Shown one piece after another: positions 1-34,830 of a DNA stretch of 37,376 nucleotides. The notes under the pieces are model-generated. The model was not told the origin of the DNA. It ran no database searches and saw only the letters and a program-made list of their open reading frames with translations. A program made the position numbers and the translations under genes. How positions within the stretch are numbered: position 1 is the first letter of the stretch; every line of letters begins with the position of its first letter. Source of the DNA: Macrostomum lignano (lineage: Eukaryota); the NCBI GenBank assembly GCA_002269645.1, contig NIVC01000105.1, positions 1 to 37,376 on the forward strand, given 5' to 3'.

Positions 1-218
1 CAGCCAACAATGCTAAACATAATAAGACAATAGAAAGCATTGAACGGCAAAAACTAGAAGAGTGAAAAAGGCTCAAGGGAGTGGAGTATTAGTTGATGCG
101 GCTAAAAGAGTCGAACAAAGTACCAGCCGCAGAAGCAGTCAAGGTGGCTGCTAAAGACGTTTAAAGTTGAAAAGAGAAACAGGGTAATGGGATAATTCTT
201 AGACCTCATGAAGCTTAG
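1..218 (+). pseudogene. C-terminal part of a Polinton core protein (pX/'cupiennin'-like), frameshifted
   Basis: Manual translation across shifts gives ANNAKHNKTIESIERQKLEE / KAQGSGV / KEKQGNGIILRPHEA*. This resembles the Maverick core-protein pattern 'RHNKTME...GKGLYLKP' and has GxG adenain-type sites. Confidence 0.55.
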
Positions 219-237
219 TTGAAATTTCTCTTATAAA

Positions 238-1609
238 ATGTGAGAACAAAAAGGATATACTGAGCATATATGAGGACATGAGAAAAAAAACTTTTAGCTT
301 TTTTCAAAAGAAAGAAGACTATATTAAGATTTCTCCAACTCCAGGTAGCACTAATAATCTCAATGTTTAGGAGGTCAAATAGTTCATGAAGTCAATTCAA
401 AGAGTCATACATTCTCATGTCAGAGGCATCGGCGTTGTATAAAATACTCATAACACAACGAGATAACACCGACTTGAATACGAACATTACTCTAGAACAT
501 AATTGGCCTATGAGACTTTTCCTCAACTCATAGTTGACATTGGGAGGAACAAAAAAGTCTATAATGATCCTGGAGAATATGACACAATCTTAAAGTCCGT
601 AATGTACTCAAAATTAATGAATGAAGTTGGAGAAGCATACGGATGGATTCCAGACACTGGAGATGCTGGGACTGTTTCTGATATACCCTAGCAAACAACG
701 CAGATGCTGAAGCTGTGAGAAACTGCAGCAATCGCTATGAAAAATAGACTCAATAAGAAGGATTCGAATACTGGATACATTAGGAGGCTTGAAAATTATA
801 ACAATGTCACTAATGCTCCAAACAGAGGTGGAACAATCAAACTATCATTAACACCTCTCATTGGGTTCCTTGATTGGCAGAAGATTAGCAAAGGAATTAA
901 ATATAAATTCACATGGACAAGAAAGACTAACGATGCTGAAATTTTCTTTGGAGCTGCCGGGACGGAAGCTAAGTTAACTATTAATAGCTTTGAGATTTGG
1001 ATCCCTGCTATTACTTTGTCACCCAGTGCTGAAGCAGCTTTTCTAAAATCACTCAACAAGGACATTACAGTATCATTTCCAGAGAGGGTAACGGTTCCAC
1101 CACAACTCATTCAAGGAAGTCCATATACATGGAACATAGCCAACATCTCCAATATGCCACTTGCAATCTTTGTAGCTTTCAAATATGACGTAAACAACCC
1201 ATCATATATAGTTAATGATCACAAGTATGTGTCTTACAAAACTGGAGCAAATTCAGTGAAAATAACCCAGCTTCAAGTCAGATTAAATCAGGTGATGTAT
1301 CCGAATGATTATGTTGAAATTGATCCAGTAGCTCAAGACATTCACAGAGCGTATGAAATGTACGAAGACATCTGCAGCCGTTTCGGTGTAACTCCTCCAT
1401 TCAATAAACAAGACTTTCTAACCATCTATCCAATCTTTTGCTTTGATCTAACAGCTCAAGATGAGTTTCTGGTCAAGAGTGGAGTGAATATTCAATTATT
1501 TATCAAGAAGTCAACAAATGTTGAGCTGACTGCTTTTGCACTAATTCTTGAACAAACAAAGAATGTAATAAAAGTTACCAGTGAATATCAAATGACCCGC
1601 GTCGAATAA
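238..1609 (+). pseudogene. Double jelly-roll major capsid protein (MCP/PY), disrupted
   Basis: ORFs 503-691 and 737-1609 plus upstream shifted fragments (EDYIKISPTPGSTNNLN, ESYILMSEAS, ITLEHNW) give the Polinton MCP pattern: YGWIPDT, NTGYIRR, LIGFLDWQKISKG, QLQVRLNQVMYP, AYEMY, YPIFCFDLT. Several frameshifts and stops in the 5' third. Confidence 0.85.
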
Positions 1610-1630
1610 GGTCATTTTTTCTTTTTTTAA

Positions 1631-2401
1631 ATGCCCAAAGTAAAATTTCAGCATGATCCTATTTTCCCTAATCCTCTTTTATGTTGTATTATCGGCGCTA
1701 CAAATACGGGTAAAACATATTTACTATTCCATATTCTTACAAGTCCTGAAAAACTAGTTGACTTTAATGAGTTAGTTTTATATGTTCCCAGAGCATCTCA
1801 AATGGATCCAGAGTATCAGTTTCTAAAATATGGCTTTGAAAATGGTCTCCCACCTTCTCTTATCAACTCACTCTATCATGTCTACCAGGTGAGTGAGGAT
1901 GCATCTCCTGAAGATATTAACATATTTGTCGAGAGGCAGCCACCCTGGTGAGTGCAAAGCACATCAGAAAATTCAGAAGTAATAGAGAAAATTTCTGTCA
2001 CTCTTTCCCATACTCCAAATGAAGAAATTTTTCATAATGGACTAAAGACATGTGTGATATTGGACGATGTTTTGGGAGAGGCTAATCAAACATTTCAGGA
2101 AAGTCTGTTTCAGAGAGGCAGGCATGGAAACTGTTGTGGTTTTTATCTAGCTCAAAATTTTACCAAACTAGATCGCAATACTGTCAGGGAGAATACGACA
2201 TGTTACATAATCTTTAAACAAAAAGATACAAACTTAAATCACATTGCTAGAAATATAGAAACGAATTATGAACCCGCTATATTCAAGGCTAAATGTAGAG
2301 AGGCTTGGAAAAAGAAGTATGGCTATATCTATATAAATACAAGAGCTGATGAGGATGAGCAAGATTTGTATAAGGATGTTCTAACTAAAATCCCATTGTA
2401 A
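1631..2401 (+). pseudogene. A32/FtsK-like genome-packaging ATPase with one in-frame TGA
   Basis: Walker A GATNTGKT, Walker B CVILDD, and RGRH and LAQNF motifs. ORFs 1631-1951 and 1952-2401 are in the same frame, separated only by TGA at 1949-1951. Confidence 0.9.
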
Positions 2402-2403
2402 AA

Positions 2404-3132
2404 ATGACTAATGAATATATAAGAGAACTCATTAATTTAGCAAAGCAGCGAGAAATGTACAAATCCAGAAATGATGCTCAACGCTATTTGAAAATTGGAG
2501 AAGAGAGTTTATATGCAAGAGTGGCTCCATTAGCTCAAAAACCTGTCACAGAAAAGCTCGATGAATTTATTGATTTCAATGCCAACCTTGTTGATAAACT
2601 TCAGAATCAAAAAGTTCCAGTTCCGCAATCAAGTACACCAAAAGGCGATTTGAACCCTGAAGTATTTGACAAAATAATTGAAGAAATTGGAAAGATTCCA
2701 ATAACTCAAAGACCAGCGCCTAGTATACGGATTCAAAAAACTGATGCTGGATATATATTTGGATCATCTGTAATAGAGGTTGAATTCCATGAACAAGGTC
2801 GGACATCATTGTCAACGAATTCCGAATGCCATTTTCTGAAGATCTTGAAGAGTTGTTCAAAATGCCTAAAGTAACTGAAAATGGTGAAGAGCTGAAGCAA
2901 TTCAAGATGCAAACATTGCAGGATTATGTTAACCTCATTGAACACTTGTAAAAATCCAGCGGCCAAATCAAGTGGGAATTATAAGCAAGCAGTAAGGATA
3001 TTGAAAGATAATCCACCAGGATATCGAGTAAAACCGGGATCTGGACTCAGTGAAAGAGTGTTGACATTACTAGCCGCAAAAGCAGAGGGACATAACAATG
3101 TTGATAAAGAGCTAGTAGAATTACTTGCTTAA
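2404..3132 (+). pseudogene. Conserved Polinton protein (PZ/'GasderminX'-like), two frameshifts
   Basis: N-terminus LKIGEESLY...KPVTEKL, a shifted middle segment SDIIVNEFRMPFSEDLEELFKMP, and C-terminus GSGLSERVLTLLAAKAEGHNNVDKELVELL, which resembles the Maverick 'L.RL.LL.AS..AGN...NEI' motif. Confidence 0.6.
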
Positions 3133-3164
3133 AAAAAAAAGAAATAGAAAAAGTCAACATCCTC

Positions 3165-3923
3165 TTGAGTAAAAAGTTTCAACGCACATTTGACTTCTTT
3201 TCAATTAAAAACCCATTTCGACAAACTCTAGGCACTCCGATAAATTTGTATGAAGATCGAGAATACGAAGCTGGTATAAAAAAGTTTGCAGTCTTTGATG
3301 CTATTAACAATATTGAAGGAGGCAATAATGAGTTGCGATACTCGAGGGATAGTGGTAGAACATGGAAGAAAATAAAGATTCAAGCAGGATCTTGGGAAGT
3401 TAAAAGTCTGTCAAGCGAGATTCAAAGATTGCTAACAGCTGCAAATGATTGGAAAGAGGGGGCTATTGTTTTCAGTGCAAGCCTAGACACGCGTAGGGTT
3501 GAGTTACGGTTAGCCACAGAGTATCAAGTTGATTTCAGGGATGCACATTCCAATAACTTTAGAAGACTGTTGGGATTCAATTCGGAAGTGTATTTGAAAC
3601 CATTTGAGAGAGCTCCAAATCCAGCTCGGATAGACGGAGCTAGAAGTGCGATCATGGTTCGTTGTCTCAATATCAAAGGGGGTTTTATCACTGATCCAGC
3701 CAATGGAAATCATTTAATTGATAAGCAAATACTTCTTTCAATTCCATCGTTCTCTGTCCCAATGGGAAGTAAAATTATTCAAGAGCCTGCAAATCCTGTG
3801 TACCTACCACTAACTACAAACATGTTGAGCACATTCGACTTTGTCATCGAAGATGAGTCTGGTGTTCTATACGACTTTGATGGCGAGGAAATATTTATAA
3901 ATCTACACGTACGACAAATATGA
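3165..3923 (+). CDS. Minor capsid protein (penton, single jelly-roll); ORF open but ATG missing
   Basis: Polinton penton motifs GSWEVKSLSSEI, RRLLGF, IMVRCLNIKGG, VPMGSKIIQEPANPVYLPL, DESGVLYDFDGEE. The frame is open upstream through an A10 run (3131-3140) but has no ATG. Confidence 0.85.
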   Translation: MSKKFQRTFDFFSIKNPFRQTLGTPINLYEDREYEAGIKKFAVFDAINNIEGGNNELRYSRDSGRTWKKIKIQAGSWEVKSLSSEIQRLLTAANDWKEGAIVFSASLDTRRVELRLATEYQVDFRDAHSNNFRRLLGFNSEVYLKPFERAPNPARIDGARSAIMVRCLNIKGGFITDPANGNHLIDKQILLSIPSFSVPMGSKIIQEPANPVYLPLTTNMLSTFDFVIEDESGVLYDFDGEEIFINLHVRQI

Positions 3924-3932
3924 GTGTTAAAA

Positions 3933-4362
3933 ATGAGCGAAGCTGAGACATGGAATGCATTTAAACAAAAGTTTGGGACTGACACTACGACTAATATTGA
4001 TCTGATAAATTGGGCAAAATATCTCAAGTTAAAACCATTTCGCTATGCCATGAGAGATGAAATTGTTGATTTACCACAGTATGGTTACTTTATGACAAAT
4101 ATTCACACTTCGAAAGAACGGGGTATACATCATTCAGCTATCTTTTCAGCTCATGATAAGGTTTATTTTTTTGATTCCTATGCACTACCGCCCACTGGAA
4201 ATTATGGAAAAGTTTAATCACACAAAGAATAGAATATGTGGAGACATGGAAGAACAAATTCAAACTTTAGATAAGAAATTTTGTGGTCAAATGTCGCTGT
4301 ACTTTTTACATCGAATCGATAAAGGAGATAGCTATAATGAAATTTTGCAGCAATTAAAATGA
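3933..4362 (+). pseudogene. Adenain-family cysteine protease, frameshifted near 4190-4200
   Basis: Catalytic His (RGIHH), Asp (YFFDSY) and Gln/Cys (QIQTLDKKFCG) are split between ORFs 3924-4217 and 4153-4362. Confidence 0.88.
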
Positions 4363-5720
4363 GTTACAAGAATACTGCCAATCAATTTGGTTACTCGTCA
4401 AATTCAAATGATATAGCACCTGGAATAACAATAGCGTTAGCTGATGATCGATACATCAATGAAAATGAAGGATATAAGAGAGAGGAAATAGATAATTTAT
4501 TGTTAGCAAAGAGAAATGTTTCAGACTCTTATTCAAAGGAAGATAGTGACGCAATGAATATCACCATGCTACAATTAATTGACGATGCTCATGGGCGCGT
4601 AAACAATGTCTACACAAAAACCGAAACTGACACTAAGATGTATTCTAAAACCGAAATTGACACTAAGATGTATTCTAAAACTGAGATTGACACTTTGTTA
4701 GCAGAAAGGCAAGGTACTGTGGGGGGTACAGAGAGTTCGAAATTAGTCAATATTCTTTCATTACTGACTTCAAACGCTTCCGATCCTGACATGAAAGTGA
4801 CCGCTTCTCATAACTCTTCAGCAGCATATCATGTTGCAGATTCAAACCCAGCTTCAGAATGGAGCAGTGTAGATGACTCAGACAAGTGGATACGAGTTCA
4901 ATTTCTGAAAAGAGCTAGGAAAGTTGTAGAGATAAAGTTGGAAGGAGAGGTGTGGCCTGGTTGGTCTGTTAGTGTGAGCCTAAATGGAACAAACTGGACA
5001 CCTGTTGAACAAAGTGCACCCATTGAACTACGAAGGGGCAATGCACATCTTAGGAAAAAAATACCCAATCCCTCATATTATTTCCATTATTCTCTTAATT
5101 TTTCTGGTTCCGTAAAGCTTACAAAAGTTGAATTACTTGAGAGACAAACAGTGGTTAATGATTTAGTGTGGCCTATAGATAGACTTCAAGCTGTACCAAA
5201 GCTATACGTAGACAATGCACTTGAATCAGTGGAGCTGCGACTAAGGCGGGGACTAGGTTTCAAATCTTATACAGGATATATTCCCCACTAGCAACACGTC
5301 AAAACTATAGAGAAAGGGGTTTCAATGTAGCGTCATCAGGAGCATTTGAAACGTCAGATAATTGGGGTTATATAGTATCTAATTCAGAATGGGCATCGAG
5401 AATGAACCCAATTCTTACATTGAAGTACAACTTCCTGAATCTATTCAAATTTGGAAATTCGGATTGAAAGGAACCAAAGCAGTGGTAGTGAAATTATAAA
5501 AAATCAACCAAAAAGTTTTATTCTGAAAGGAGCAATAACAAGAGAGACTTTAGAATATTTTTTCTACCGAAAATGCTGGTTTAGTTCCTGGAGTGATGAA
5601 GTATTTTGAAGTAGCTTCCACGAAAAATTCTCCGTTATAGAGTGCATATTAATTCAGCCACTGAAGGATCAACTGTTCTTATTGTTTCAGGCTTTCAACT
5701 TTATCCGATTTTAGACATAA
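4359..5720 (+). pseudogene. Fibre/receptor-binding-like protein: YxKxExD repeats plus two F5/8-type-C (discoidin-like) domains, the second one frameshifted
   Basis: ORF 4359-5291 has 10-aa repeats (YTKTETDTKM YSKTEIDTKM YSKTEIDTLL) and a VTAS..AYHV..EW..KWIRVQF..WSVSVSLNGTNWT domain. Downstream shifted fragments (GFNVASS, SEWAS, SYIEVQLPESIQIWKFGLKG, FQLYP) form a second such domain. AATAAA lies near 5797. Confidence 0.6.
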
Positions 5721-5827
5721 TTGTCACATAATTAGACATAATACCATAGTCACCATTAAAACACACAACATAAGCACAAAAACTCCCAACGGGGTCAATA
5801 AACAAAAATTACTATCTTAGGAAGCTG

Positions 5828-6308
5828 GCAAGTAGGCAAACTTCACTCAGTGACTAACGCAGGAATTCGGGTTGTATATTTTTCATCTACTTTTGCTACA
5901 CACAGAAGCAATCTCGCAGAGCAATAATATGGTCGGCTATTGTCCAACCACCGTAGCAAAGCAAGTAGGCAAACTTTACTCAATGAGTAACGCAGGAATT
6001 CGGGGTTGTATATTTTTTATCTTATACTCTTGCTACACAGAAGCAAGCTCGCACCGCAACAATATGGTCGGCTATTGTCCGACCAAGATAGCAAAGCAAG
6101 TAGGCAAACTTCACTCGATGACTAACACAGGAATTCGGGGTTTTATATTTTTCATCTACTCTTGCTACACAGAAGCAAGCTCGCACCGCAACAATATGGT
6201 CGGCTATTGTCCGACCAAGATAGCAAAGCAAGTAGGCAAACTTCACTCGATGACTAACACAGGAATTCGGGGTTTTATATTTTTTATCTTATACTCTTGC
6301 TACACTGA
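5828..6308. repeat. Tandem array of ~3.6 units of 132-135 bp, each with two short hairpins
   Basis: GCAAGTAGGCAAACT recurs at 5828, 5961, 6096 and 6228. Units contain CTTGCT-N7-AGCAAG and TGGTCGG-N7-CCGACCA (perfect in units 2-3, imperfect in unit 1). Confidence 0.95.
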
Positions 6309-6313
6309 GTCAT

Positions 6314-6414
6314 GCATTCCATTCAGACCAAAACGCGAGACCAAAACGCGAGAAGAAAATTTCGAAAAATAAAAAGATAAAAATTGGTCTCGTGTTTTGG
6401 TCTGAATGGAATGC
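6314..6414. repeat. 30-bp inverted repeat (1 mismatch) with 41-bp A-rich spacer
   Basis: 6314-6343 GCATTCCATTCAGACCAAAACGCGAGACCA pairs with 6385-6414 TGGTCTCGTGTTTTGGTCTGAATGGAATGC. Confidence 0.95.
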
Positions 6415-6522
6415 GGGGTCTGACGTTTTGTCATAAAAATATATAAATGAATGGCCACGAGCGGCAAGGTCTAGTAATTTTTCTCTACTAACTTTACCTT
6501 CTTACAAAATATCATTCCTACA

Positions 6523-7099
6523 ATGCCTTCTTTCTCGAATTTGCACGAGAGGCTTACTGCCGCTAGAGCAACTCTTAGAATTCGTGAGCGAAATTTGCGA
6601 CAACACCATAGGAACTCAATGTTTAGAGATATTGCCATCAACATCTTTTTGGAGTATAACCCACAAAATTTGGCTAATGAAGAGCGCTTCTTTAATCAGC
6701 TAAAGGTTAGTTAAAAAGTGTTTTTACATTATAAGGTTTTAAGTTTACAAAAATCATATACGAGCGCACCAAACCCTTTCCTAGAACTACTATCTTCAAA
6801 AACGTCGCGTTCAAGAAGCAGAGAGGCGCTTGGTTGCTTATCGCCAAGATATGGAGCACCAACTAGCTGATATTCAACCAGAGGATAACCCGACTCAAGT
6901 ACAGAACCATCCAGCTCAGCCGGGGAATAATCAAGGGCTTTGTCCAATCTGCCAACACGAACCACGGCCACCAAACGTTACCATGGCATGTTGTCGAGCT
7001 GTGGTTTGTGAAATATGTTATCGCACCGGAATTCAAGAGGGCAACATGGTTAGGTGCCCAACATGCCGCGCTGATATAGAACCATCTAATGCGCCATAA
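6523..7099 (+). CDS. RING-finger protein (putative E3 ligase), predicted 2 exons: 6523-6705 and 6785-7099, ~165 aa
   Basis: C-terminal CPIC-x10-CCRAVVCEIC-x12-CPTC RING-like motif. A 79-bp GTTAGT...CCCTTTCCTAG segment joins ORF 6523-6714 in frame to ORF 6830-7099. Confidence 0.7.
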
Positions 7100-7263
7100 T
7101 TATCAACATGACTTGATATCAAACATTTATTAAGGTAATAATTTAAACAAATATATCATCGCTTTGAGCAGGCCACATTTAGCCCAATGGAGTTTGGCCT
7201 TTGGTGTCTGAAAGTCTTTTTCTGTTCCTGTGTTTATTTTTCTGTTTCTAAAAATAGACAAAA

Positions 7264-7480
7264 ATGTGCCCCGTTACAGATCCACGCAAGCTAAGAGAGT
7301 ATACAATAGGTGAGCCCCTAGAGTACAATGGAGAAGGTATTTTGATACTAGAAGCACCATTCCAACTTACTAAAAGACAATCTACCTCTCATAAGACAGG
7401 CAGGTGCTGCCGGAATCGCAAAGGCAGTCAATAATAAAAAAGCTGCCAATGAAGTAGGCGCAAAAGTAGCGAAAATTTAA
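7264..7480 (+). pseudogene. Second, degraded core-protein-like fragment
   Basis: FQLTKRQ followed, after a shift, by AGAAGIAKAVNNKKAA, matching the Maverick core-protein motif 'GAAGIAKAVN..KAA'. Confidence 0.45.
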
Positions 7481-7494
7481 GAAGACAAAGTATA

Positions 7495-7920
7495 ATGATA
7501 CACAGAAAATGCTAAAGTTGGATTATCTATAGAAATTTGCCCAAAAGAAAGCAAAAATGTTAAATTTTTCATAGAAAAATGGAAGCTAACCCAAATGTTC
7601 GAAATGCACTGCCACAAAAGTATATATGATTCTATTATAAATTTCTCTCAATAAAAACACCAACTCGAAAGGCTCGACTAATTGAAGAAATTGATAAAGC
7701 TTACGATGAATATAAAGCAGAAATATTAAAACACAGCGATTGTAAATGCCCCCCATATTTGTATTCATTCAGAGTATATCTTGCACATGTTGATAAATGG
7801 GCATTGATTTCGAGACAGCACATAAGGAATGATGAATTTTTCGTCATGCTTAAGTTGAACATTTTCAAACTCCCCATAACCCTTGAGAAGTACATTGAAA
7901 CTGATGAATTATATTGTTAA
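7495..7920 (+). pseudogene. Frameshifted hypothetical viral ORF
   Basis: Two consecutive open frames (TENAKVGLSIEICPKES... and TRKARLIEEIDKAYDEYKAEILKH...) joined by a shift near 7650; no recognisable domain. Confidence 0.3.
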
Positions 7921-7936
7921 ATTTATTTTAAATAAA

Positions 7937-10400
7937 ATGGAAAGAAAAAATCAAAACGATTCAAGTTTCTCTCCTGTGATCGTACAGGATCCGCTTCAAA
8001 ACCATGATGTCCCACCACCAAGATTGACAAATTTAAAACAAACAAAATCGTACGATAAACTAATTAATCTCTATGAAGAACTTAATTTTAGATTCGGAAG
8101 TTGCAGTGTAACATGGAATAGTAAAACAAAGAAAAAAATACCATCAGGAATGCCAACCAAAGCAGATAGGAATTCAACCTCACCACCATTTCGACCAGAT
8201 GTAGACAACATGATTTGGATAGATACTAGAAACTCAAATATAACCGTAATCGATATTGATAATGCTGACCTATGCCCTGAGTTGAATGAACTGTGTATGA
8301 CTCATTGTGATTGGGTTGTTCAGACAAACAAGGGACACCACTTTTACTTTAACAAAGTAGATGGATTGAAAGTAACGATTCAACAAAGTGTGGGTTTTGA
8401 TATTCCGCCTTAGTATTTGCTCCACCAGGTTTCTATTATGTCGATGGTGAAATTAGGGAATACAAACGTACAAAGTCCAAATGTTTAATAGACATGCGAG
8501 ATGTAATTCTTGATGAGATAAATAGATTAATAAAGCCACAGGATAAAAAAGAAAACCAAGAACCCGATAAACAGGCACTAAAAAGCACCGTTCCACCACC
8601 CACTTGTGAAGGAGCTTCAAAGTTGTTAAGTATAATACAACACAAAAACCAAGACTATGATTCTTGGTACAAGGTAGCACTTATACTCCGCGACATAGAC
8701 AGTGGTGATGAAATGTACAAAGTATTCACTGATTGGTCAAAAGTAAATTATGATAAGTTCGATTCCGAATCATGTAAAAAGGTGTGGAATAGCACCAGTA
8801 CCAGCTCTGCTGATGCACAGGACAGACTTACTATCGGTACACTAAAGAAATGGGCAAGTGAAGAAAACTATAACAAATATAAGGAATGGAAAAGCAAATA
8901 TGATTATTATGGTAGGATTGAGTTTCTTGATGATAATTTCACTGACGTTAATATAACCAACTTTGTTTATGAATATAAGAAGAATAATATAATTTACAAT
9001 AGCGATGGTATTTACTATTTTGATGATGATAAGTGGAGAGAACTAAGTAGTATAAATGACATATTTCTTAAAATATCACACCTTGTCAGCAGTGAGTTAA
9101 ACCACCGAAAGACTAGACTCGAAATTGCAATTAAGAAGGCGGCTGATGATAAAGAGAAGTTAAAAGCACTTGAAAAGAAACTACAGAGTACAATAAAGAA
9201 TATAAATTCAATACAAGGAGCCAACAAACTCAAACAGGTAACTACTTTGTTCAAAGAGAGGTTTACTAACAATGAAATTGAATTCGACATGAAATGGAAT
9301 TTGCTAGGGTTTAACGATGGAGTATACGACCTCCTTACAGGTGAGTTTCGCGAGTATAGATATGACGATTACGTTACTAAATCGGTGGGATATAATTACT
9401 CGGATGTACTTGGAGTGAGTGATTACGACTATGGCTTCATTGTTAATCTGCATAACCAAATTCATCCCGATCCAGAAAATAGAAAAAGTTGGGAATCCGT
9501 TATAGCCACAGCTCTAATGGGTAAGAATGTTGAAAACTTTATAATGTTTGATGGCGCTGGTGGAAATGGCAAGGGAGTTGAGGACAACCTACTTCTTAGA
9601 ACTCTAGGGTCTGATTATGCAGCACCACTGAGTCCTGATGTTTTGAATTTACCAATAAGAATAGACAGGCCACAACCAGCCCTAGCACAAATTAATAAAA
9701 AGAGGTTGGTTATCAGTCAAGAAGTAAGTGGTGTCTTGAACAATGCATCAATAAAATTACTAACTGGTGGTGGGGTTATCCAAGCTAGAAATTTATATTC
9801 AAGCCAGTGTAATGTCGTTTTACACACAACTCTGATAGTCGAATGTAATAACAAGCCTGACTTTAGACAAAATATTGGAGATGCAGAAAAAAGACGAATT
9901 ATAAATATTAATTACCCATGTAAATATACAGCAGATACCGACATCATTGATCATGCGAAACACATTTATAAAGCCGATTCATATCTTAAGACCGAGGAGT
10001 TTAAGAATAAATATAAGTTTGCTGAGATGAAACACCTACTAGAAATTTTCAAGCAAACAAAGGGTGAAATATATCGATCGAAAAGCGTAATTGAAAACAC
10101 TAATGAATTCATACAGAATTGTAATTGGTTTGCTCACTTCTTTGAAGAGAATTATGAATTTTTAGAAACTGAGGAAAAAACATTTTGCTTATTAGAGAAA
10201 TTTACACTGCCGCAACAGAGAGTGAATACTATAGGACTCTAGCCCAACGTGAGAAACGTGAATTCCAACAACAATACATAACAGATTTCTTCAAGAATCA
10301 CAATGACTATTGTAAGTATTATAAGGATAGATATAGGCGTAGGATAGATGGTAAACAGCAAGAAACTAGAAATGTTCTGTTTTACTGTGTAAAAAAATAA
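7937..10400 (+). pseudogene. D5-like primase-helicase: PrimPol (AEP) + PriCT-2 + D5_N + SF3 helicase + C-terminal domain; two frameshifts
   Basis: AEP motifs VIDID and TNKGHHFYF; shifted LVFAPPG; PriCT-2 DYDSWYKV..WS..KVWNS..TIGTLKKWA; D5_N LLGFNDGVYDL..GEFR; Walker A GAGGNGKG, Walker B ISQE, motif C VECNN. Shifts near 8410 and 10190. Confidence 0.9.
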
Positions 10401-10421
10401 ACGAAGATGTTATCAATGAGA

Positions 10422-13397
10422 TTACATTGGCTGATGAGGAATAGATCTGATAGGATCCAAATAATATCTTTTATCATCTAACGGACTCATTGTTTGTTTC
10501 ATAATCTCACGAATATATATTTTATTTTTTTCAGATACAGTCATACTTACTCTACCTCTTTGAATATCTTTGTAATCTGTCAATAGTATGTTTTTAAAAG
10601 TTTCAAAATTTATATTTGTACTGCTTTTATCAACCCCCTTGATCGTAACACATTCCCCTGAAACTGTAGTGAAAGCATACTCCTTTGACCGCAGGAATAC
10701 AGCTTCGGAAATTATTGAGCCATTCATTTCATCTTTCAACTTTCCAATAACTTTCTTGTTCGTCTCGGAGTATAGTGGATGCTCTCTTGGATAATCCGAT
10801 GTGTCTAAGTGTTCTTTAATTTTTTCAAGATCCTTATAAACATCTTGAGTAATCACTGAGAATATTAGCGAATCACAATCAGAATAGTGCAATTGACAGC
10901 TGTTCCAATTCTTCTCAATAAAATTGTAATAGCAATCGTACATTAGCATTTTTGCATAATCCAGAATAGCCATTCCTAAATAAATTGGCTTGTCACACGC
11001 AATTGTCTTTTTGTACATTTGGACACCAACTGCATCCTCACTAAACATAATGAAATCTTTGAAACTTGGTTTGGAAAAATAACGCCTTGCAGTTTTTTCT
11101 TCAGCTACAAGATGAAAGTTCGACCTATTCTTTACATTTTCGATTGTTTTACCGTAGAATGAATTGTTCAGTAGTTTCCACAGGTCTTTCTCAAATTTAG
11201 TTTTTGCTTCCATTCTCTGCCTGGTATTAAATTCGATGTATTTACTCAACCAGTTTGACTCTTTGAATGAAAGAATTCTATGAACTCTCATAACTCGCAT
11301 GCCCATCTTCTCATAAAACTCAAGTAGTCTGTGATGTAAAACATATTTCTCCTTGTTGTAAAATGTCAACATCAACTTGGATTGAACAAACTTTTTCTTT
11401 TCGACTTCGAGGTATTGCTTCTGTATATCAGATAAATCCTCAAACCTAGTTGTTCGTTTCTCAGGAGCCAGTGGATATTTACTTGTAGCTTTCTTACAGT
11501 CCTCTGTATATTCAAGGTCAACTTCAAGAAAACAACCCCTGCCATTAGGAATATTCTTGTGATACTCTAGATTATTTTCAAACTTGAAATCTCCCACAGG
11601 TAGATTTTTCATCATTGCTTCACCATATAAATTATTCTTGTCCAAGTATAGCATGTACGACGATTCAGAATTGCTGTCATAACTTTCTAAATACTTGTTA
11701 TTCATTTTTTTATATCGATCTCCAAGAACTCCAGAGAAACCGCCGCGAATACCACTTTCTACCATGGATATCATTTCTTTATCACCAAGTAATTCCAATT
11801 CCACATTAGTATATTTCAACCCACATGCCCACGATAATCCAGAAAGGGAAAAGCAATACGCAGGATCTATCTTGAAATATTTCAAAAATGTTGATCGAAA
11901 CTTCTCAAAAGCGTTGACAAATGAGTAAATCTTTCTAATTACTGCTGTTGTATCACTGGGTGGCAAATATTTTATTTCTTCTTCAGAGAGTGTAAATGGT
12001 GGTTCCAAAAACCTAGATCCATCTAAAAACACAACACCACTGGTATAATTCCCCCACTTAATTGCAACATGGTCTTCCGATGTTTTAGAAATGAAATCCA
12101 ATTTATAAGCTGTATTCTTTATTCGTGTTAATGGAACTATCAAATAGTTTAGATCTTTTCCAGATTCATTCAGGAGAAACAACGGTACCGTTTGATTCGC
12201 CTTGCCCTCCTTGGTATTACATGATTGACATGCTGCGCCGCGATATTTACCATTGTAGTGATTATGCTCTCGAATTTTTTTACTATCTACAAATGGCCTT
12301 GAGCAGAGAAAACATTGTTCTGCCGCTTTGTAATCAGTCTCTTCGACATCACTTAATCTTGGATGTTTATATCTATCCATTTCATTTTTTATATGCTCAA
12401 ACTTTTTTATTACGGTTTCAACGAATGATTCCACTGTAGTATTTAAAATAATATTTGATTTTATAATGTCCTCATAGTCGGAACTAGTAAAAAGTGTCCA
12501 TTGTGATAGCTCTAGTGATTTATCATCCATCGTTACATAATCTAATATTGCATAAAACACAAATGGTTTTCTTACACTCATGTGGTAGTTTTTAAACTTT
12601 AATATCCTCTTATCAATCTTTGGAACTTCAATTGACACTTTGAAGTCATTACAGATTGCTTTATGATTATCCAGTGCATCCTGGGAGTATTTGACTTGAA
12701 GACACTTTCGACAAAGAAAAACCCTGTTGTAATTTTGGGACGTGAGGAATAAACACAAGTCTGTTATTAAGCAATAATGATTTTCAACAAGTAGTAAATC
12801 AATAACATTGGGGTTGTCGTAATCTTCTGTCAGACGAATAGAATATATTGACTCTTTAGTATTTATATCCCTCAATCCAAACACATTTATATGAAGACTG
12901 TTCAACTTTTCAATCTCAGAGATATCTCGAATGTCCACTGGAAATTTAACGTCTCCTAAGTTTATTTCATTTATATACTGTGTATACTTACCAACTCTAT
13001 ATCTATGTTCCTTCACAGGATGGAGCTTTGCTAAAATAGACCAGAGAAAGCACCTATTGTCTTTAGTGTTCTTAACATTTACTAATGCGTTTGATTTAAT
13101 TGGAATTAGAATATAAGTTCCTCCTTTCAACTGATTAATGCCAACAACTTTCAACACAATCTTTACTAACTTAACAAAATAATATCCTGATCCCCTTTCA
13201 TTAAAACTATCCTTCCATCCATCGAATTCATCCAGAACATCCTGAATTGTACTTTCTATACTAGTTTCCACTTGGAGAAGATTTAACAAAGTTCGATACT
13301 TTGAATGATATTGGAACTCAATCCAACTGTCGGTAGTTCCTTTATAAAATTCTGCGACAAAGGAAATTCTGTATTTTATTGAATCTCTAGCCATCAA
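10422..13397 (-). CDS. Protein-primed family B DNA polymerase (Polinton group-2/betaadintovirus type) with vOTU-like and EndoVII-like Zn-finger segments; degenerate exonuclease
   Basis: 991-aa open frame with motif A YLDKNNLYG, motif B KLLNNSFYGKT, motif C YSDCDS, KVIGKLKDE, a TPR1-type insert LEVDLEY..YPLAPE, DDKRY, and CxxC..HNHYNGKYRGAACxxCN. The frame stays open upstream to an ATA at 13478. Confidence 0.95.
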   Translation of the reverse strand: MMARDSIKYRISFVAEFYKGTTDSWIEFQYHSKYRTLLNLLQVETSIESTIQDVLDEFDGWKDSFNERGSGYYFVKLVKIVLKVVGINQLKGGTYILIPIKSNALVNVKNTKDNRCFLWSILAKLHPVKEHRYRVGKYTQYINEINLGDVKFPVDIRDISEIEKLNSLHINVFGLRDINTKESIYSIRLTEDYDNPNVIDLLLVENHYCLITDLCLFLTSQNYNRVFLCRKCLQVKYSQDALDNHKAICNDFKVSIEVPKIDKRILKFKNYHMSVRKPFVFYAILDYVTMDDKSLELSQWTLFTSSDYEDIIKSNIILNTTVESFVETVIKKFEHIKNEMDRYKHPRLSDVEETDYKAAEQCFLCSRPFVDSKKIREHNHYNGKYRGAACQSCNTKEGKANQTVPLFLLNESGKDLNYLIVPLTRIKNTAYKLDFISKTSEDHVAIKWGNYTSGVVFLDGSRFLEPPFTLSEEEIKYLPPSDTTAVIRKIYSFVNAFEKFRSTFLKYFKIDPAYCFSLSGLSWACGLKYTNVELELLGDKEMISMVESGIRGGFSGVLGDRYKKMNNKYLESYDSNSESSYMLYLDKNNLYGEAMMKNLPVGDFKFENNLEYHKNIPNGRGCFLEVDLEYTEDCKKATSKYPLAPEKRTTRFEDLSDIQKQYLEVEKKKFVQSKLMLTFYNKEKYVLHHRLLEFYEKMGMRVMRVHRILSFKESNWLSKYIEFNTRQRMEAKTKFEKDLWKLLNNSFYGKTIENVKNRSNFHLVAEEKTARRYFSKPSFKDFIMFSEDAVGVQMYKKTIACDKPIYLGMAILDYAKMLMYDCYYNFIEKNWNSCQLHYSDCDSLIFSVITQDVYKDLEKIKEHLDTSDYPREHPLYSETNKKVIGKLKDEMNGSIISEAVFLRSKEYAFTTVSGECVTIKGVDKSSTNINFETFKNILLTDYKDIQRGRVSMTVSEKNKIYIREIMKQTMSPLDDKRYYLDPIRSIPHQPM

Positions 13398-13515
13398 ATA
13401 TTCGGAAAGAATTGGGGAGATTAAACCGCGAATTTCTTCAACGGAGTCGAGATCGAATTCATAAGAGGCCGCTGGTATTTTTTTTTTTTTTTTTAAGAAA
13501 AAAAATTAAACAGAC

Positions 13516-14256
13516 TCAAGCATAGGGGGGTGCACTTGGAGCATTTGATTGAAGATTGAGTGTTGCCGAGTACTCTTTTGGCTTATCAGCTAGACCCAAT
13601 TTTTCTCTCAGATCTTTCTCCAGCAGTTCCTTTTTAATTTTTTCCTTCGCTGATTGACCAAGTCTACTCTCTTTGAGGATTTTATCAACGACTTCCGAAT
13701 GGTTAACTTCTTTAGGCGCAACACAGGTGTCTAACAATTGGTCTCTTTTCTCTCTGTATTCTGAATAAATTGCAGCAGCTGCTTGAACCTCTTCAAGAGT
13801 TAATCTATAATCATCAACTGCTTTTTGGGAGTAAATATACAATCTCTCTCTGTATTGATTTGCCAGATCTCTGAGAACAATGTATTTTGCCTTCTGCTTT
13901 TGGCAATGCATTTTCACAGTTGCAAACAACGACGTGGATTTTACAGCTTCAAAACCACTCATTGCCCCGATTACTACTCCAATAACTAAGGGATTCAATG
14001 TCAGTATCGATGTTGCTATGCCAATTCCTGTAGCAGCCAAGAGACTTACATTTCCTGTCACAATGTTGATCCAATTTATCCTGCTACTTTGTCGTTTGTA
14101 CTTTTTTACCTTTTTGCTATAAATTGTAAGATCTTTCGTAATGCATTCAATACTGCCTTTGATTTCACCCTTTCTCTGATTGAAATAGTCCCGCTCCCTC
14201 AAATCTGCTTCATGCAGCTCAACCACAGGATAGATGTGTTCATTTTTTTCATTCAT
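13516..14256 (-). CDS. Polinton membrane/coiled-coil protein with C-terminal PSAP motif
   Basis: Intact ORF (likely ATG at 14256, MNEKNEHIYP...). Hydrophobic hairpin INIVTGNVSLLAATGIGIATSILTLNPLVIGVVIGAM, a basic coiled coil before it, and terminal PSAPPYA. Confidence 0.7.
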   Translation of the reverse strand: MNEKNEHIYPVVELHEADLRERDYFNQRKGEIKGSIECITKDLTIYSKKVKKYKRQSSRINWINIVTGNVSLLAATGIGIATSILTLNPLVIGVVIGAMSGFEAVKSTSLFATVKMHCQKQKAKYIVLRDLANQYRERLYIYSQKAVDDYRLTLEEVQAAAAIYSEYREKRDQLLDTCVAPKEVNHSEVVDKILKESRLGQSAKEKIKKELLEKDLREKLGLADKPKEYSATLNLQSNAPSAPPYA

Positions 14257-14774
14257 TTTTATATGGCGATTATGCCTAATTGTCAATTATGTCTATACCT
14301 GACTGAATATCTAAGGCATTTCCTAGAAATATTGGTTTACTGAAGGCCATTTTATATATATATAATTTACTATCGTTGAATTGGATGACACTTTCATTTT
14401 GTATATACCTGAAATTGCATTAAATTGACCCGAGGATCCAACTTTTCTCATGGTTTTTGAGCTGGAATCGTGAAAATTGCACTTTTTCAAAATTTTTGAA
14501 AATCACAAAAAATCGCTGTTTTCAGACCATTTTCACCTGTTTTTAGTCATTTTTCACTTATTTTTAGTGATTTTCAAAATGAGTGAGGGCATGAGGGCGA
14601 GGGCACCCCCCCTTTTTAAAAGTATAAAAATTCCGGAAATTCTGTGTTCTGTGAAATATTCCACAGGCCAATGCCCCCACATGCCCTCACCCTCAACACC
14701 CTCACTCACAGATATATGTATATTTATATATTTTTATATTTATCACACACACACTTGAATCCATGACCACCTGC

Positions 14775-14875
14775 TAGTAGTAGTATGTTATAAGGGGCTG
14801 AGTCATCCAGCGAGCTGGCGCGTAATGCGCCCGAGCAATAAGTGTGGCGCAGCCCCTTATAACATACTACTACTA
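14775..14875. repeat. Perfect 26-bp inverted repeat (101-bp hairpin); candidate right terminus of the Polinton
   Basis: 14775-14800 TAGTAGTAGTATGTTATAAGGGGCTG is the exact reverse complement of 14850-14875, with a 49-bp GC-rich spacer. Confidence 0.9.
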
Positions 14876-15310
14876 ATCTCTTTTGTTGTTCTTGCGAATT
14901 CTGCTCAACCCCAGGGCACAGGACTCGCACACACCCAGCTTCCAACTAGTAGATAGGCAAAACATGAGGGACTCCATAAACTGAAGCTGAGTGGGGAAGC
15001 TGGAAAGATTGCTCTAGAGACATTTTGAGCAGTTCGACTTAGGGAATGAGGAAGCAGAGGAGGCTGGAGCTGGACTGTTCCCCAATGCCCGCTAATGCCC
15101 AAGAGGCGGCCGGCCACTCCACCAGCGCGCAGAAGTTCTGGCTCGTTTCTGGGGACGAAAATTTTTAGACTGCTAAGCCGGCCATTCATTATGCCGTTGG
15201 CTCTTTATTAGATTAGTGCCATGCAGAATGGGCCTCCGTGCGGTTGGCGCTCCGGCCGCGGCGGCAGATGAGCCTCGCCTCTGTCTTATACTGCTCTTTG
15301 ACTGCGGCTG

Positions 15311-30771: not shown

Positions 30772-33700
30772 ATGAGACGCTCTTCATCGGACTGGAGCAA
30801 CCTGGGCTCAGACTATGACGAGGCCCGTCGCAAGGCTAACCAGGTCATCATCAATGTCAACCAGTTCTTTCCATTGCTGGATAGCGAAATTCGCGTCTAC
30901 AAGGACAAGATGTCCTATTTGGGAGATAACAGCGTCGGCAAACCGCTGAGACCGTTTCCCAATGTTGAAGGAGCGATAGAAAAAGCTGGCACACTGCCAA
31001 GTATCAAAGAGGAAGAGGTCCCACCTGCAGAAGCCCCTGACACCCAGACCGAAGACTCGACACTTTTTGCCACCGAACTTGATGGCGAGCAGCAGCAGCG
31101 GCAGCGGCAGGCTACTTCGACGCCAAAGTCCGCCGCCACCGGGTCTCACGACGATGAATGGACGGCAGATCGAAAAAGAAAAATTCTCACAATGAAGCAG
31201 ACAGTTGAAGAAGCAGTGGCAAGGTATGTCAAGCTTTCATGCAGAGACGCCGTTGCATGTGAAGAAGCGCCATTTTATTTGAGGGTGCATCAAATCATTG
31301 TTGAAAACCGCCTGAGAGTGTTGTATCTCGGTTAACAACTCATGAGGGTTAATTACAAAAGCACAGAGAGTGTACATGACTGGCAATATTGACGCGCTTG
31401 CATCAAGGACTACTTAACTAGAAGAACACTAAACTCTAAAATGATGGCAAAATAGTTGAAGGCCGATTTTTATTTTCCCCATAAATTTTGATAAGTGCAT
31501 GTATGAAGATGATGTTTTGACTCGGAAGCGCAGAATTTATTCCTCTTTCAACCAAATTGTTACTCGTGTCTGTAGCTTCAGGTGTTCCAAAGAATAGTGT
31601 ACAGTAAAGTACACGTAGCCCCAATTCAGTAACTTAACTACTTAACTAGAAAAGCTTAAAACAATATAGAGGATTCATGTTCTATAAGATCGGAAAATAT
31701 CAAGTAGCCATTTACTATCGAAATCTTAAAGGAAGCCGATCTCGTCATGACCATGTTGTGACTCTATAGAGTGAAATCAACCACTGAAGGAACTCCTGAC
31801 TACACCACTCAAAAATTCCCATCTAGTTAATGCATTTTTTGTCGAAAATCGGCCTTCAACTATTTTTCCACGAATCATGAGTTTTACGTCCTCTTATATG
31901 CTAGTGGTACTTGGCTTGCTTGAGCTCAGGAGTCAGTGGAGTCAGAATCGGTAGAATTGTGTGGTGTTCTTATCTGTAGATTGCGTCCCTATTTTATTTC
32001 ATCCGCATTCAACTCCCCTCCCTAAAAACGCTACTCCACCGCAGGCACTATCGCGACGCGATGCTCGCCTTGAAACAGGGCGACGATTTGACAGCCATGC
32101 GAAAGCTGCACCGCTGCATCGCCCTCCGACCAGACGATGCGGATTTCTATCACCACCGAGCCGAGCTGTTTGTCCGCCAGTGCGACTTCCGATCAGCCAT
32201 AGCCAACTACCGGAAGTGCATGCGACTGCAGCCGGAAGCGGCTGGCTCGGCGGGCTACTGGGACCGATTGGCGTTTCTGTATTTGTTCTACGGTCAGACT
32301 CTGTTTGATCAGGGCTACTACGCTGAAGCGTTGGAGAACTTTGCTAAGGTAAATAATAGTAAAAATAGCTTGCTTAATTCATATAGTTAAAACAGTCATT
32401 TTTGATAACCAACTAATTAACGAGCACCTAATTAGTGAGAAAGAGAAGAGCAATCTACGTGCAAAAAGCAATTCAAAAACAGATATCTAGATGAGTTATT
32501 TCTTAATACAATAAACATCGATTTGTTTAGTTAGACTTTATAAGAAACCGCTTGATCATGCTGAATTCAGATAAAGTAGAGAAGAGATGAGAGAAAAGAG
32601 GAAAGGATAAAGAAAGGAGGGAGACGAGAGAAGAAAGTTAAACGGACCGGATCGCCATTGAGAAGTTTCAAAGAACCCAAGGGCCGGATAGAGGGATGCC
32701 GTAGCCAGTGGTCTGGCGCTCTTATGTACCAGCGGCCCAGGCTCGATTCCAAGTGCAGTCACATTAACTTGGACTAAATTGGAACTTCGGCTTGGCTCTG
32801 CTCGCGCTAGTAACGGTCTTGAGACCCGACCCCCAAAGCACAGTGAAGTGTACATGCCTAACGATAAATAAAGTTAGGGCCGCTGTACACTCCTGTGTGA
32901 CTGTGTGCCTGTGCGTATGACTGCGTACGTATCCGCGCGCTTGTGTGCCTGCTCAGGGAAGTTGTGAGAAAATGTCGCTTGAAGTGCGCCAGAGTGCACA
33001 CAGCCCCCTAAATATGGGGGCCGGATACAGAGGCTTCGTGGGTCGTATTTCTTCGATGTCTTTACAGTCTCTCATGCCGAATCTCCACAGGCTTCGGAAA
33101 TGCAGCCTGACAATGTTGCGTACCAAACTCGCAGCATCGCTTGCCTCACAGCGCTGGGCAGACACTCCGAATGTCTGGCCTTGGTCAACAAACGCTTAGA
33201 AACGAACAATAGTAATCCTGATTTGTACGTGATGCGAGCTAGGCTGCATTTCATATTCAAGAGCTACACTTTGGCTTATTACGATGCCAAGGATGCGTTG
33301 GCCATTTCGCCCGGGCATTCGGGCGCCGCTCAGATGAGGGACTATCTGTTTGAGTCGGCGAGGAACTATGGAAGGTGAGGTTTTTTGAGGTATTTAGGAG
33401 AGAAGTAGACAGGATCAGGTCTGGTTGTATATTGCAGGAGAGAAGTAGACAGGATGAGGTCTGGTTGTACATTGCTGGAGAGGAGTAGACAGGAAGAGGT
33501 CTGGTTGTATATTGCTGGAGAGGAGTAGACAGGATGAGGTCTGGATGTACATTGCTGGAGAGGAGTAGACAGGATGAGGTCTGGATGGACATTGCTAGAG
33601 AGGAGTAGACAGGATGAGGTCTGGATGTACATTGCTGGAGAGTCGGGATGTACATTGCTAGAGAGTCGGGATGTACATTGCTGGAGAGTCGGGATGTACA

Positions 33701-34830
33701 TTGCTAGAGAGTCGGGATGTACATTGCTGGAGAGTCGGGATGTACATTGCTGGAGAGTCGGGATGTACATTGCTGGAGAGTCGGGATGTACATTGCTGGA
33801 GAGTCGGGATGTACATTGAAAGGAAGTTGAGAAACCTAACGCACTCTATTCCATCCAACACTTCGTTCCCCTCAGACAAGCTGTCGAGCTGGCCATCAAC
33901 GGTCGCCTTCGAGAGGCGCACAAGAAGGCCAGCCTGGCAATCGACATGGACCCATCCGTTGCCGAGTTTCACGTTCGTCGAGCCGCTTTAAATCGTCGGC
34001 TTGGCGATTTCAACGCCGCCGTGGAGGACTGCCTGATGGCCATGGACAAGTGCGACCACGATCCAGCGTCTAAGCCTTTTACGGACGCGCAGCGCCAACT
34101 GCTGTTGACGTTCAACGACTTCGCCGTCGAGTGCTACATGAAAGGCTTCTACGAGGAGAGCGTCGGACTGTTAGAGAAAGCGATCAAAGCTGAGAAAGAA
34201 GAGAAAGCGCTCTATATTAATAGGGGCGACTGCTTCTATCGGCTTGGTCGGCTGCAATTCGCTCAGTTAGACTACGAACAAGTGAGGGCTTGAAGTCCTG
34301 TGACTGGGCAAATGCTGAACACGAACACGGGGGTGTAACAGTGTTATTGTCTTTAAATTTGTCAGAGCGCTACATAATCTCTATTACAGGGTCTTAAAAG
34401 TTAATGAATCAATTTGTTTAGAAAACAAAACATTAAATTTTTAGGCCTGGGATTTGGATCCCAACGATTCGTCCATTGGCCTCCGTCTATCGCTGGTTCA
34501 CCACCGGATGGGCCAGGCCGCCTTCCAAGAGAAAGATTTCGCCAAGTCGGTTGACTGCCTGACTCGCGCCATCGAGCGCAATCCGCTCTGCCACCACCTG
34601 TGGACCGCCCGGGGTCGGTCGCGCTACTTTCAAACTGACTTGAAGAATGCTCAGGTGGACCTGGCTGTTGCTTTGCTGCTCAAAGCCGAGCTCGACGAAG
34701 CGATGAGAACCCTGCTAACGAGGCTGTTTCCTAGTGTGCCCACGGATAAAATTCTGACTGGAACTACCGGGCTAAGACAAAAGGCGGAGAAGGAGCTGGC
34801 CAGGTTAGTTCACTAGTGGAATTAGTTAGC

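Follow-up and report, generated by a model that had tools for sequence, protein, structure and literature searches.

The reading that we favour, and consider probable, is that a Polinton family in the flatworm Macrostomum lignano has lost the catalytic residues of its polymerase exonuclease and survives by way of an acquired primase-helicase that would unwind the template. The adjoining primase-helicase, which a first-pass annotation of this DNA did not mention, is the likely reason why the exonuclease loss is tolerated. The stretch analysed here (the window) opens contig C105 and comprises 37,376 nucleotides of a 764-Mb genome.

Element organization

Window bases 1-14874 correspond to the right-hand part of a Polinton of about 18 kb (Table 1). 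The opposite end lies past the contig start, as does the integrase gene, which was recognized in the copy on contig C2232 (rve, E=5.9e-10). Both terminal inverted repeats of about 600 bp are present in the C67 and C2232 copies, and a 6-bp target-site duplication flanks the C2232 copy and is not evident at C67. The element therefore has the features that define Polintons/Mavericks: a protein-primed PolB (pPolB) with a retroviral-type integrase, terminal inverted repeats, a 6-bp duplication, and a DJR capsid, ATPase and putative protease. The full gene set consists of integrase, DJR capsid, A32 ATPase, putative minor capsid and protease, fibre-like protein, RING finger, primase-helicase, PolB and membrane protein. 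The capsid and ATPase domains were identified by Pfam (PF21738 and PF04665), the ATPase being broken by one stop in the window copy. The putative minor capsid protein was assigned from position and similarity to sister elements, and the putative protease, which has no Pfam match, from position and 63-67% identity to the same elements.

Table 1. Positions of element features in the window
Feature	Position	Strand	Description
Virion module	719..5291	+	DJR capsid, A32-type ATPase, putative minor capsid and protease, fibre-like protein
RING-finger gene	6851..7099	+	Present in only some copies
Prim-Pol / PriCT-2 / D5_N / S3H primase-helicase	7904..10400	+	Pfam; convergent with PolB
Polinton pPolB	10422..13394	-	ORF, 990 aa
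Polymerase motif C	10869..10886	-	YSDCDS
Polymerase motif B	11148..11177	-	KLLNNSFYGK
Polymerase motif A	11625..11648	-	YLDKNNLY
ExoIII position	11931..11945	-	Residues 484-488; AVIRK, without Tyr or Asp
Linker	11946..12008	-	21 residues in place of ~97; ~75 aa deleted, including KGx[FY]PYEY
ExoII	12153..12173	-	Residues 408-414; HNGSxYD changed to LNESGKD
Endonuclease VII-like domain	12189..12326	-	PF02945, E=1.7e-7; inserted in exonuclease domain
ExoI	12540..12554	-	Residues 281-285; YAILD, DxE changed to ILD
Putative vOTU-like region	12765..13061	-	Cys (DNRCF) and His (HYCLI) motifs
Membrane-protein gene	13516..14256	-	~97% nt shared with exonuclease-intact family C
Terminal inverted repeat	14278..14874	.	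~600 bp, AGT-type tip

Several further features of the element were recorded. The tip of the terminal repeat (window 14776-14875) contains an imperfect internal inverted repeat (~76% over 100 bp), and three to four direct repeats of 132-135 bp each occupy the gap between the fibre and RING genes (5828-6315). A small ORF 5' of the primase-helicase (7630-7917, + strand) has no Pfam match and is conserved in the diverged lineage B described below (69% over 51 aa). The block containing the membrane gene, PolB and primase-helicase (7456-14279) is inverted among copies of the family, with the window and C67 copies in one orientation and the C2232 and C412 copies (L037-L040) in the other. The left arm carries an Eco47II-like restriction endonuclease gene (L040:7105-7548, - strand; Pfam E=2.2e-6). 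The C67 copy (L041:3398-7666) directly follows the PolB of another Polinton that bears the exonuclease segment, in a nested or tandem insertion. From position 15200 to 37376 the window consists of host DNA, which contains arrays of microsatellites and minisatellites along with exon-like ORFs (e.g. TPR-like, 32061-34816).

Loss of the exonuclease motifs

The first-pass annotation had claimed that PolB appears to have lost the catalytic Asp of ExoI and the Tyr/Asp of ExoIII, that ExoII reads LLNESGKD and that a segment after FLDGSRF is deleted, while polymerase motifs A, B and C and the reading frame are preserved. All of these claims held up in an alignment of 272 sequences, 247 of which cover the exonuclease region. 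Twenty chosen homologues read Y[AC]DFE at ExoI, HNGSxYD at ExoII and YxxxD at ExoIII. The ExoI Asp is found in 234 of the 247 sequences, the rest being 11 gaps, one Asn and the Ile of the window pPolB, and the ExoIII Asp in 245. At ExoII, Asn and Asp are retained and His and Tyr are gone. Of the four metal-binding acids, the window protein thus has D>I and E>D at ExoI, D>K at ExoIII (in ungapped register) and only the ExoII Asp unchanged. The canonical Polinton combination of ExoI DxE, ExoII NxxxxD and ExoIII YxxxD is absent from it. While 17 aligned sequences lack one or more of the four acids, most of the others do so through gaps in fragments or gene models, and the window pPolB is the sole one of 247 with substitutions at ExoI plus ExoIII loss.

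The spacing from FLDGSRF to ExoIII is 21 residues compared to 89-182 (median 97) in the 182 homologues for which both motifs were found, and the distance from the ExoII Asp to the motif A Asp is 171 residues compared to a median of 246 (n=262). The deletion junction is bridged without insertion by contigs assembled from four runs, each belonging to a different study, and we therefore reject an assembly error. Two Mytilus gene models (P0059 and P0282) lack nearly the same segment and keep ExoI, ExoII and the Asp of ExoIII; their gap may come from spurious intron calls.

The catalytic residues of motifs A, B, C and KxY are all retained, with a Lys in motif A (2/247) and a Cys in motif C (2/241) being rare. 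The frame is open from 13505, with a homopolymer run at the 5' end in the window copy, and a sister protein is 32 residues longer at the N-terminal side. A protein 95-96% identical to the N-terminal half is recorded for Macrostomum lignano. In that half, a region that appears vOTU-like by analogy with section 8 of PMC11161782 has C228 among its conserved residues. PF03175 has no match in the window pPolB and matches several homologues. The Endonuclease VII-like insert is constrained (70% amino acid identity between lineages A and B) and is also found in exonuclease-intact relatives.

Predicted structure

The AlphaFold2 model of pPolB is confident (pLDDT 87.4); the exonuclease-intact control, folded without an alignment, failed (pLDDT 30). 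The model has the same predicted fold as phi29 DNA polymerase (PDB 2pyj), with Z 26.2 and rmsd 3.4 over 506 residues, the superposition spanning residues 276 to 971. At the ExoIII position a helix is predicted (residues 484-507) with neither Tyr nor Asp. The prediction is thus that the core strands of the exonuclease remain, as does the ExoIII helix, but stripped of their catalytic side chains. The top viral Foldseek matches are bidna-like and adintovirus PolBs, and a sequence search among solved structures with pPolB gave no match.

The lesions are shared by the family and predate its divergence from lineage B

Searching the genome with the exonuclease region gave at least 180 matches, of which at least 14 extend over the full length with identities of 93-100% (132 of 1035 candidates were scored). 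All 25 of the 25 copies scored, the window and 24 loci (some of which may be allelic or duplicated), agree in ExoI, ExoII and the deletion junction except for point changes. For variants found in at least three copies, pN/pS is 0.10 in the N-terminal part, 0.17 in the exonuclease remnant and 0.13 in the polymerase domain. Singleton variants have a pN/pS of 0.36-0.63 and include 12 stop codons. The low ratio of shared variants compared to singletons fits selection during replication followed by decay after insertion.

A diverged lineage, B, is represented by one relic on contig C2974 with 68.5% nucleotide and 62-65% amino acid identity to this family, which we call family A. The relic carries AILD, LNES and a deletion 12 residues longer, and has a Gly at the motif A Asp. 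Across the N-terminal, exonuclease-remnant and polymerase regions, pS between A and B is 0.63-0.71 and pN 0.19-0.21, corresponding to a dN/dS of about 0.12-0.16 with near-saturated synonymous divergence and with codons in windows below 50% identity dropped. The polymerase-domain value (~0.12) derives from 213 codons and one broken copy. The earlier suggestion that the proofreading residues were lost while the virus was still replicating is thus borne out, and since all 25 copies and lineage B share the lesions, copy-specific decay is rejected.

The missing segment has no match in 78 family A/B loci except for the PolB of a neighbouring unrelated Polinton. In the C620 copy, 1.2 kb of sequence (L015:298-1502) has been inserted at the junction; this insertion was considered as the missing segment and rejected as unrelated.

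A primase-helicase adjoins the polymerase

The primase-helicase is in three pieces in the window copy and forms a single 833-aa ORF in another. Its helicase part has D5_N, DUF5906 (weak), Walker A/B, a sensor and an Arg finger, so that family A, like mavirus, has a separately encoded S3H helicase. Among 19 copies, almost every covered one has intact primase and helicase motifs, and the shared-variant pN/pS is 0.25. Lineage B has an orthologous primase-helicase in the same arrangement (53% amino acid identity, pS 0.70, pN 0.29). The polymerase and the helicase alike are under purifying selection. The helicase was gained and the exonuclease lost before A and B separated, in either order.

The nearest database relatives of the primase-helicase show 25-37% identity, with giant-virus MAG contigs accounting for many of the best loci. 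None of 79 loci with D5 relatives has a pPolB match beside them, and accordingly these loci yielded no second case of exonuclease loss with D5. D5 had no match in four elements of the exonuclease-intact sister family (Exo motifs verified in three). A screen of 117 related loci from viruses and metagenomes with one D5 query was likewise negative; this set was found partly with exonuclease-motif patterns and so is biased to intact motifs, and 49 of its loci are at least 8 kb long.

Relatives and a probable recombinant family

In a FastTree phylogeny, from which mavirus and alpha-class reference sequences are absent, the window PolB nests among exonuclease-intact Polinton PolBs. Its sister clade is an exonuclease-intact family of the same genome (support 0.99-0.995). 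Single-protein scans gave no close relatives outside this genome; the best PolBs from elsewhere are 52-58% identical over the polymerase part. Because the window PolB nests among intact Polinton PolBs, its exonuclease loss is independent of the mavirus case.

Another set of copies, family C, is found on contigs C781, C25 and C1449 (L267-L272, L063-L064 and L317-L324). The C781 and C25 copies share 8,388 bp, from integrase to membrane gene, with a family A copy at 98.4-98.7%, and the C1449 copy shares 6,647 bp at 98.3%. The family C PolB (1,276 aa) is 45% identical in the polymerase domain, has intact ExoI-III and groups with a metagenomic protein, not with the window pPolB. Family C has no helicase match, and no terminal repeats were found in the stretches examined. 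We infer that the exonuclease-dead cassette was recently exchanged for a proofreading one without a helicase; the direction is provisional, as it comes from an unrooted comparison.

Explanations for the tolerated loss

Every exonuclease metal-ligand substitution described for adenovirus in the accessible part of PMC3061072 failed to support replication, and phi29 mutants of these ligands are defective in strand displacement (PMC6351526). From this biochemistry, the exonuclease metal ligands of protein-primed PolBs would also serve strand displacement, so that their loss would normally be lethal. Exonuclease loss accompanies helicase gain in mavirus and PLVs, a relation termed compensatory (PMC11161782). 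In family A, an acquired S3H helicase would take over unwinding and remove the need for strand displacement by way of the exonuclease; the catalytic site and the subdomain of 75 residues would then be free to decay. What is left of the exonuclease core would remain as a scaffold that probably supports the template tunnel and the Endo VII insert, and the primase might serve repriming or lagging-strand synthesis. The presence of terminal repeats and vOTU-like motifs suggests that protein priming persists.

As there is one evolutionary event only, exonuclease loss and helicase gain could have come together by chance. It is conceivable that the two are unrelated, with a polymerase that displaces strands by itself and tolerates errors on an 18-kb genome and a primase-helicase that is a passenger. 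The linkage of the traits in one lineage only, the highly mosaic replicase genes of these viruses (10.64898/2026.10.13.758929) and the exonuclease core fold and inter-motif polymerase segments kept in the model would agree with this. We nevertheless regard it as unlikely given that the helicase evolves under purifying selection and was already being inherited jointly with the polymerase before A and B diverged, that polymerase and helicase appear to have been swapped out together in family C, and that adenovirus and phi29 mutants behave otherwise. Still less probable is an ongoing replicon replacement (Barth et al., PMC11296320) with an AEP primase-polymerase/helicase taking over and PolB decaying. 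Although the Prim-Pol motifs are intact, AEP-S3H fusions are the sole replicases in PLVs (PMC11161782), and PolB shows rare residues in motifs A and C as well as the Gly in the B relic, the polymerase domain is the most constrained (dN/dS ~0.12 between A and B, shared-variant pN/pS 0.13) and almost every covered copy retains the PolB catalytic residues.

We give an equally small chance to the idea that the genome is not copied in an error-prone manner at all, being replicated in trans by co-resident Polinton polymerases or edited by host repair or the Endo VII insert. Exonuclease-intact families are abundant in the genome, no acceleration is seen outside the exonuclease region and the Endo VII domain is constrained. 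Replication in trans, however, would not hold the family's own polymerase under selection, Pfam found no stand-alone exonuclease among 92 ORFs of at least 75 aa, and Endo VII is not a specific compensation because intact relatives have it too. The most improbable explanation is residual exonuclease activity through the shifted ExoI Asp and the ExoII Asp. These two acidic residues are invariant in the copies covered and the remnant is no less constrained than other parts of the protein, but loss of two ligands (D12A/D66A) already abolishes phi29 editing, the ExoIII Tyr/Asp, the ExoII Tyr and about 75 residues are gone as well, and the exonuclease region evolves faster than in the intact sister.

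Is the polymerase error-prone?

The family A polymerase is predicted to lack 3'-5' editing and to have lower in vitro fidelity. Its polymerase domain evolves about 1.2-1.5 times faster than that of the intact sister, mostly not significantly: its depth is 0.58 compared to 0.38-0.41, and relative-rate tests find A faster in 21 out of 21 cases, significantly in 4 (three with one outgroup). The exonuclease region evolves 2-2.7 times faster than in the intact sister (4/4 tests), and the N-terminal part has fewer lineage-specific changes (4/4 tests). Since protein rates are a weak proxy of mutation rate, these tests neither show nor exclude a mutator. Diversity in the shared gene is 1.46% among family A copies and 0.20% among family C copies; we rejected this difference as evidence for a mutator because it is confounded by the age of the expansions.

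We only tentatively suggest, and consider somewhat doubtful, that family A is an animal mutator virus without proofreading, which has given up phi29-style replication with self-unwinding for replication driven by its helicase and primase, and whose cassette alternates on one capsid/integrase body with a proofreading, helicase-free cassette within a single genome. If true, the two would provide a matched pair for the trade-off between exonuclease and helicase.

Comparison with known systems

Family A resembles the alpha-class adintoviruses and group-2 Polintons, as defined in PMC8502044, in its integrase, DJR capsid, ATPase, terminal inverted repeats, 6-bp duplication, OTU-like Cys/His motifs and PLA2-like domain. 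Jeong et al. report, in the accessible part of PMC10748475, that the exonuclease motifs are conserved in 20,702 pPolB1 and 1,331 pPolB2 homologues linked to an integrase, across all taxon groups. In contrast to the group-2 Polintons described there, family A has lost these motifs and added a primase-helicase, which is at odds with the general statement that the polymerases of animal Polintons retain them. No exonuclease-dead animal Polinton was found in the literature covered; most subscription papers, Repbase and the supplements of PMC10748475 (fig. S7 and tables S2-S3, which could include the family) were outside its scope.

Exonuclease-less pPolBs are known from mavirus-related elements (PMC13215967, PMC12721341). 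The polymerase had been called unusual in the first-pass annotation; this needs qualifying, because exonuclease-less pPolBs of mavirus and PLVs are already published (PMC11161782). As in the mavirus pPolB with its stand-alone S3H helicase and the Tlr1/transpoviron pPolB-S1H (PMC11161782; PMC13215967), exonuclease loss in family A goes with a helicase and the palm is kept. Two differences from mavirus are the animal host and an AEP primase fused to the helicase. The window pPolB does not belong to the mavirus type, with its remnant domain and mavirus clade: mavirus keeps a domain remnant only, whereas in family A selection maintains the Endo VII insert and the greater part of the exonuclease fold, and the sister group of the window pPolB is intact Polinton PolBs in a tree without mavirus. 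The family A exonuclease is thus an intermediate stage of loss. Krupovic et al. 2024 proposed a mutual compensation of exonuclease loss and helicase gain on the basis of ancient cases (mavirus, PLVs), to which family A adds an independent one at an intermediate stage. Because a proofreading sister PolB and family C share the genome, this hypothesis can be tested directly with natural enzymes.

Mosaicism of replicases and second replicases have been described (PMC11296320; 10.64898/2026.10.13.758929). As in nematode Polintons (PMC10748475), one virion/integrase body is combined with two polymerases in one genome. The nematode pPolB1 and pPolB2 both keep the three Exo motifs, while the alternatives here are proofreading without a helicase and non-proofreading with a primase-helicase. 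Laboratory ligand mutants of the phi29 and adenovirus polymerases are crippled or non-viable, whereas the natural variant in family A kept propagating.
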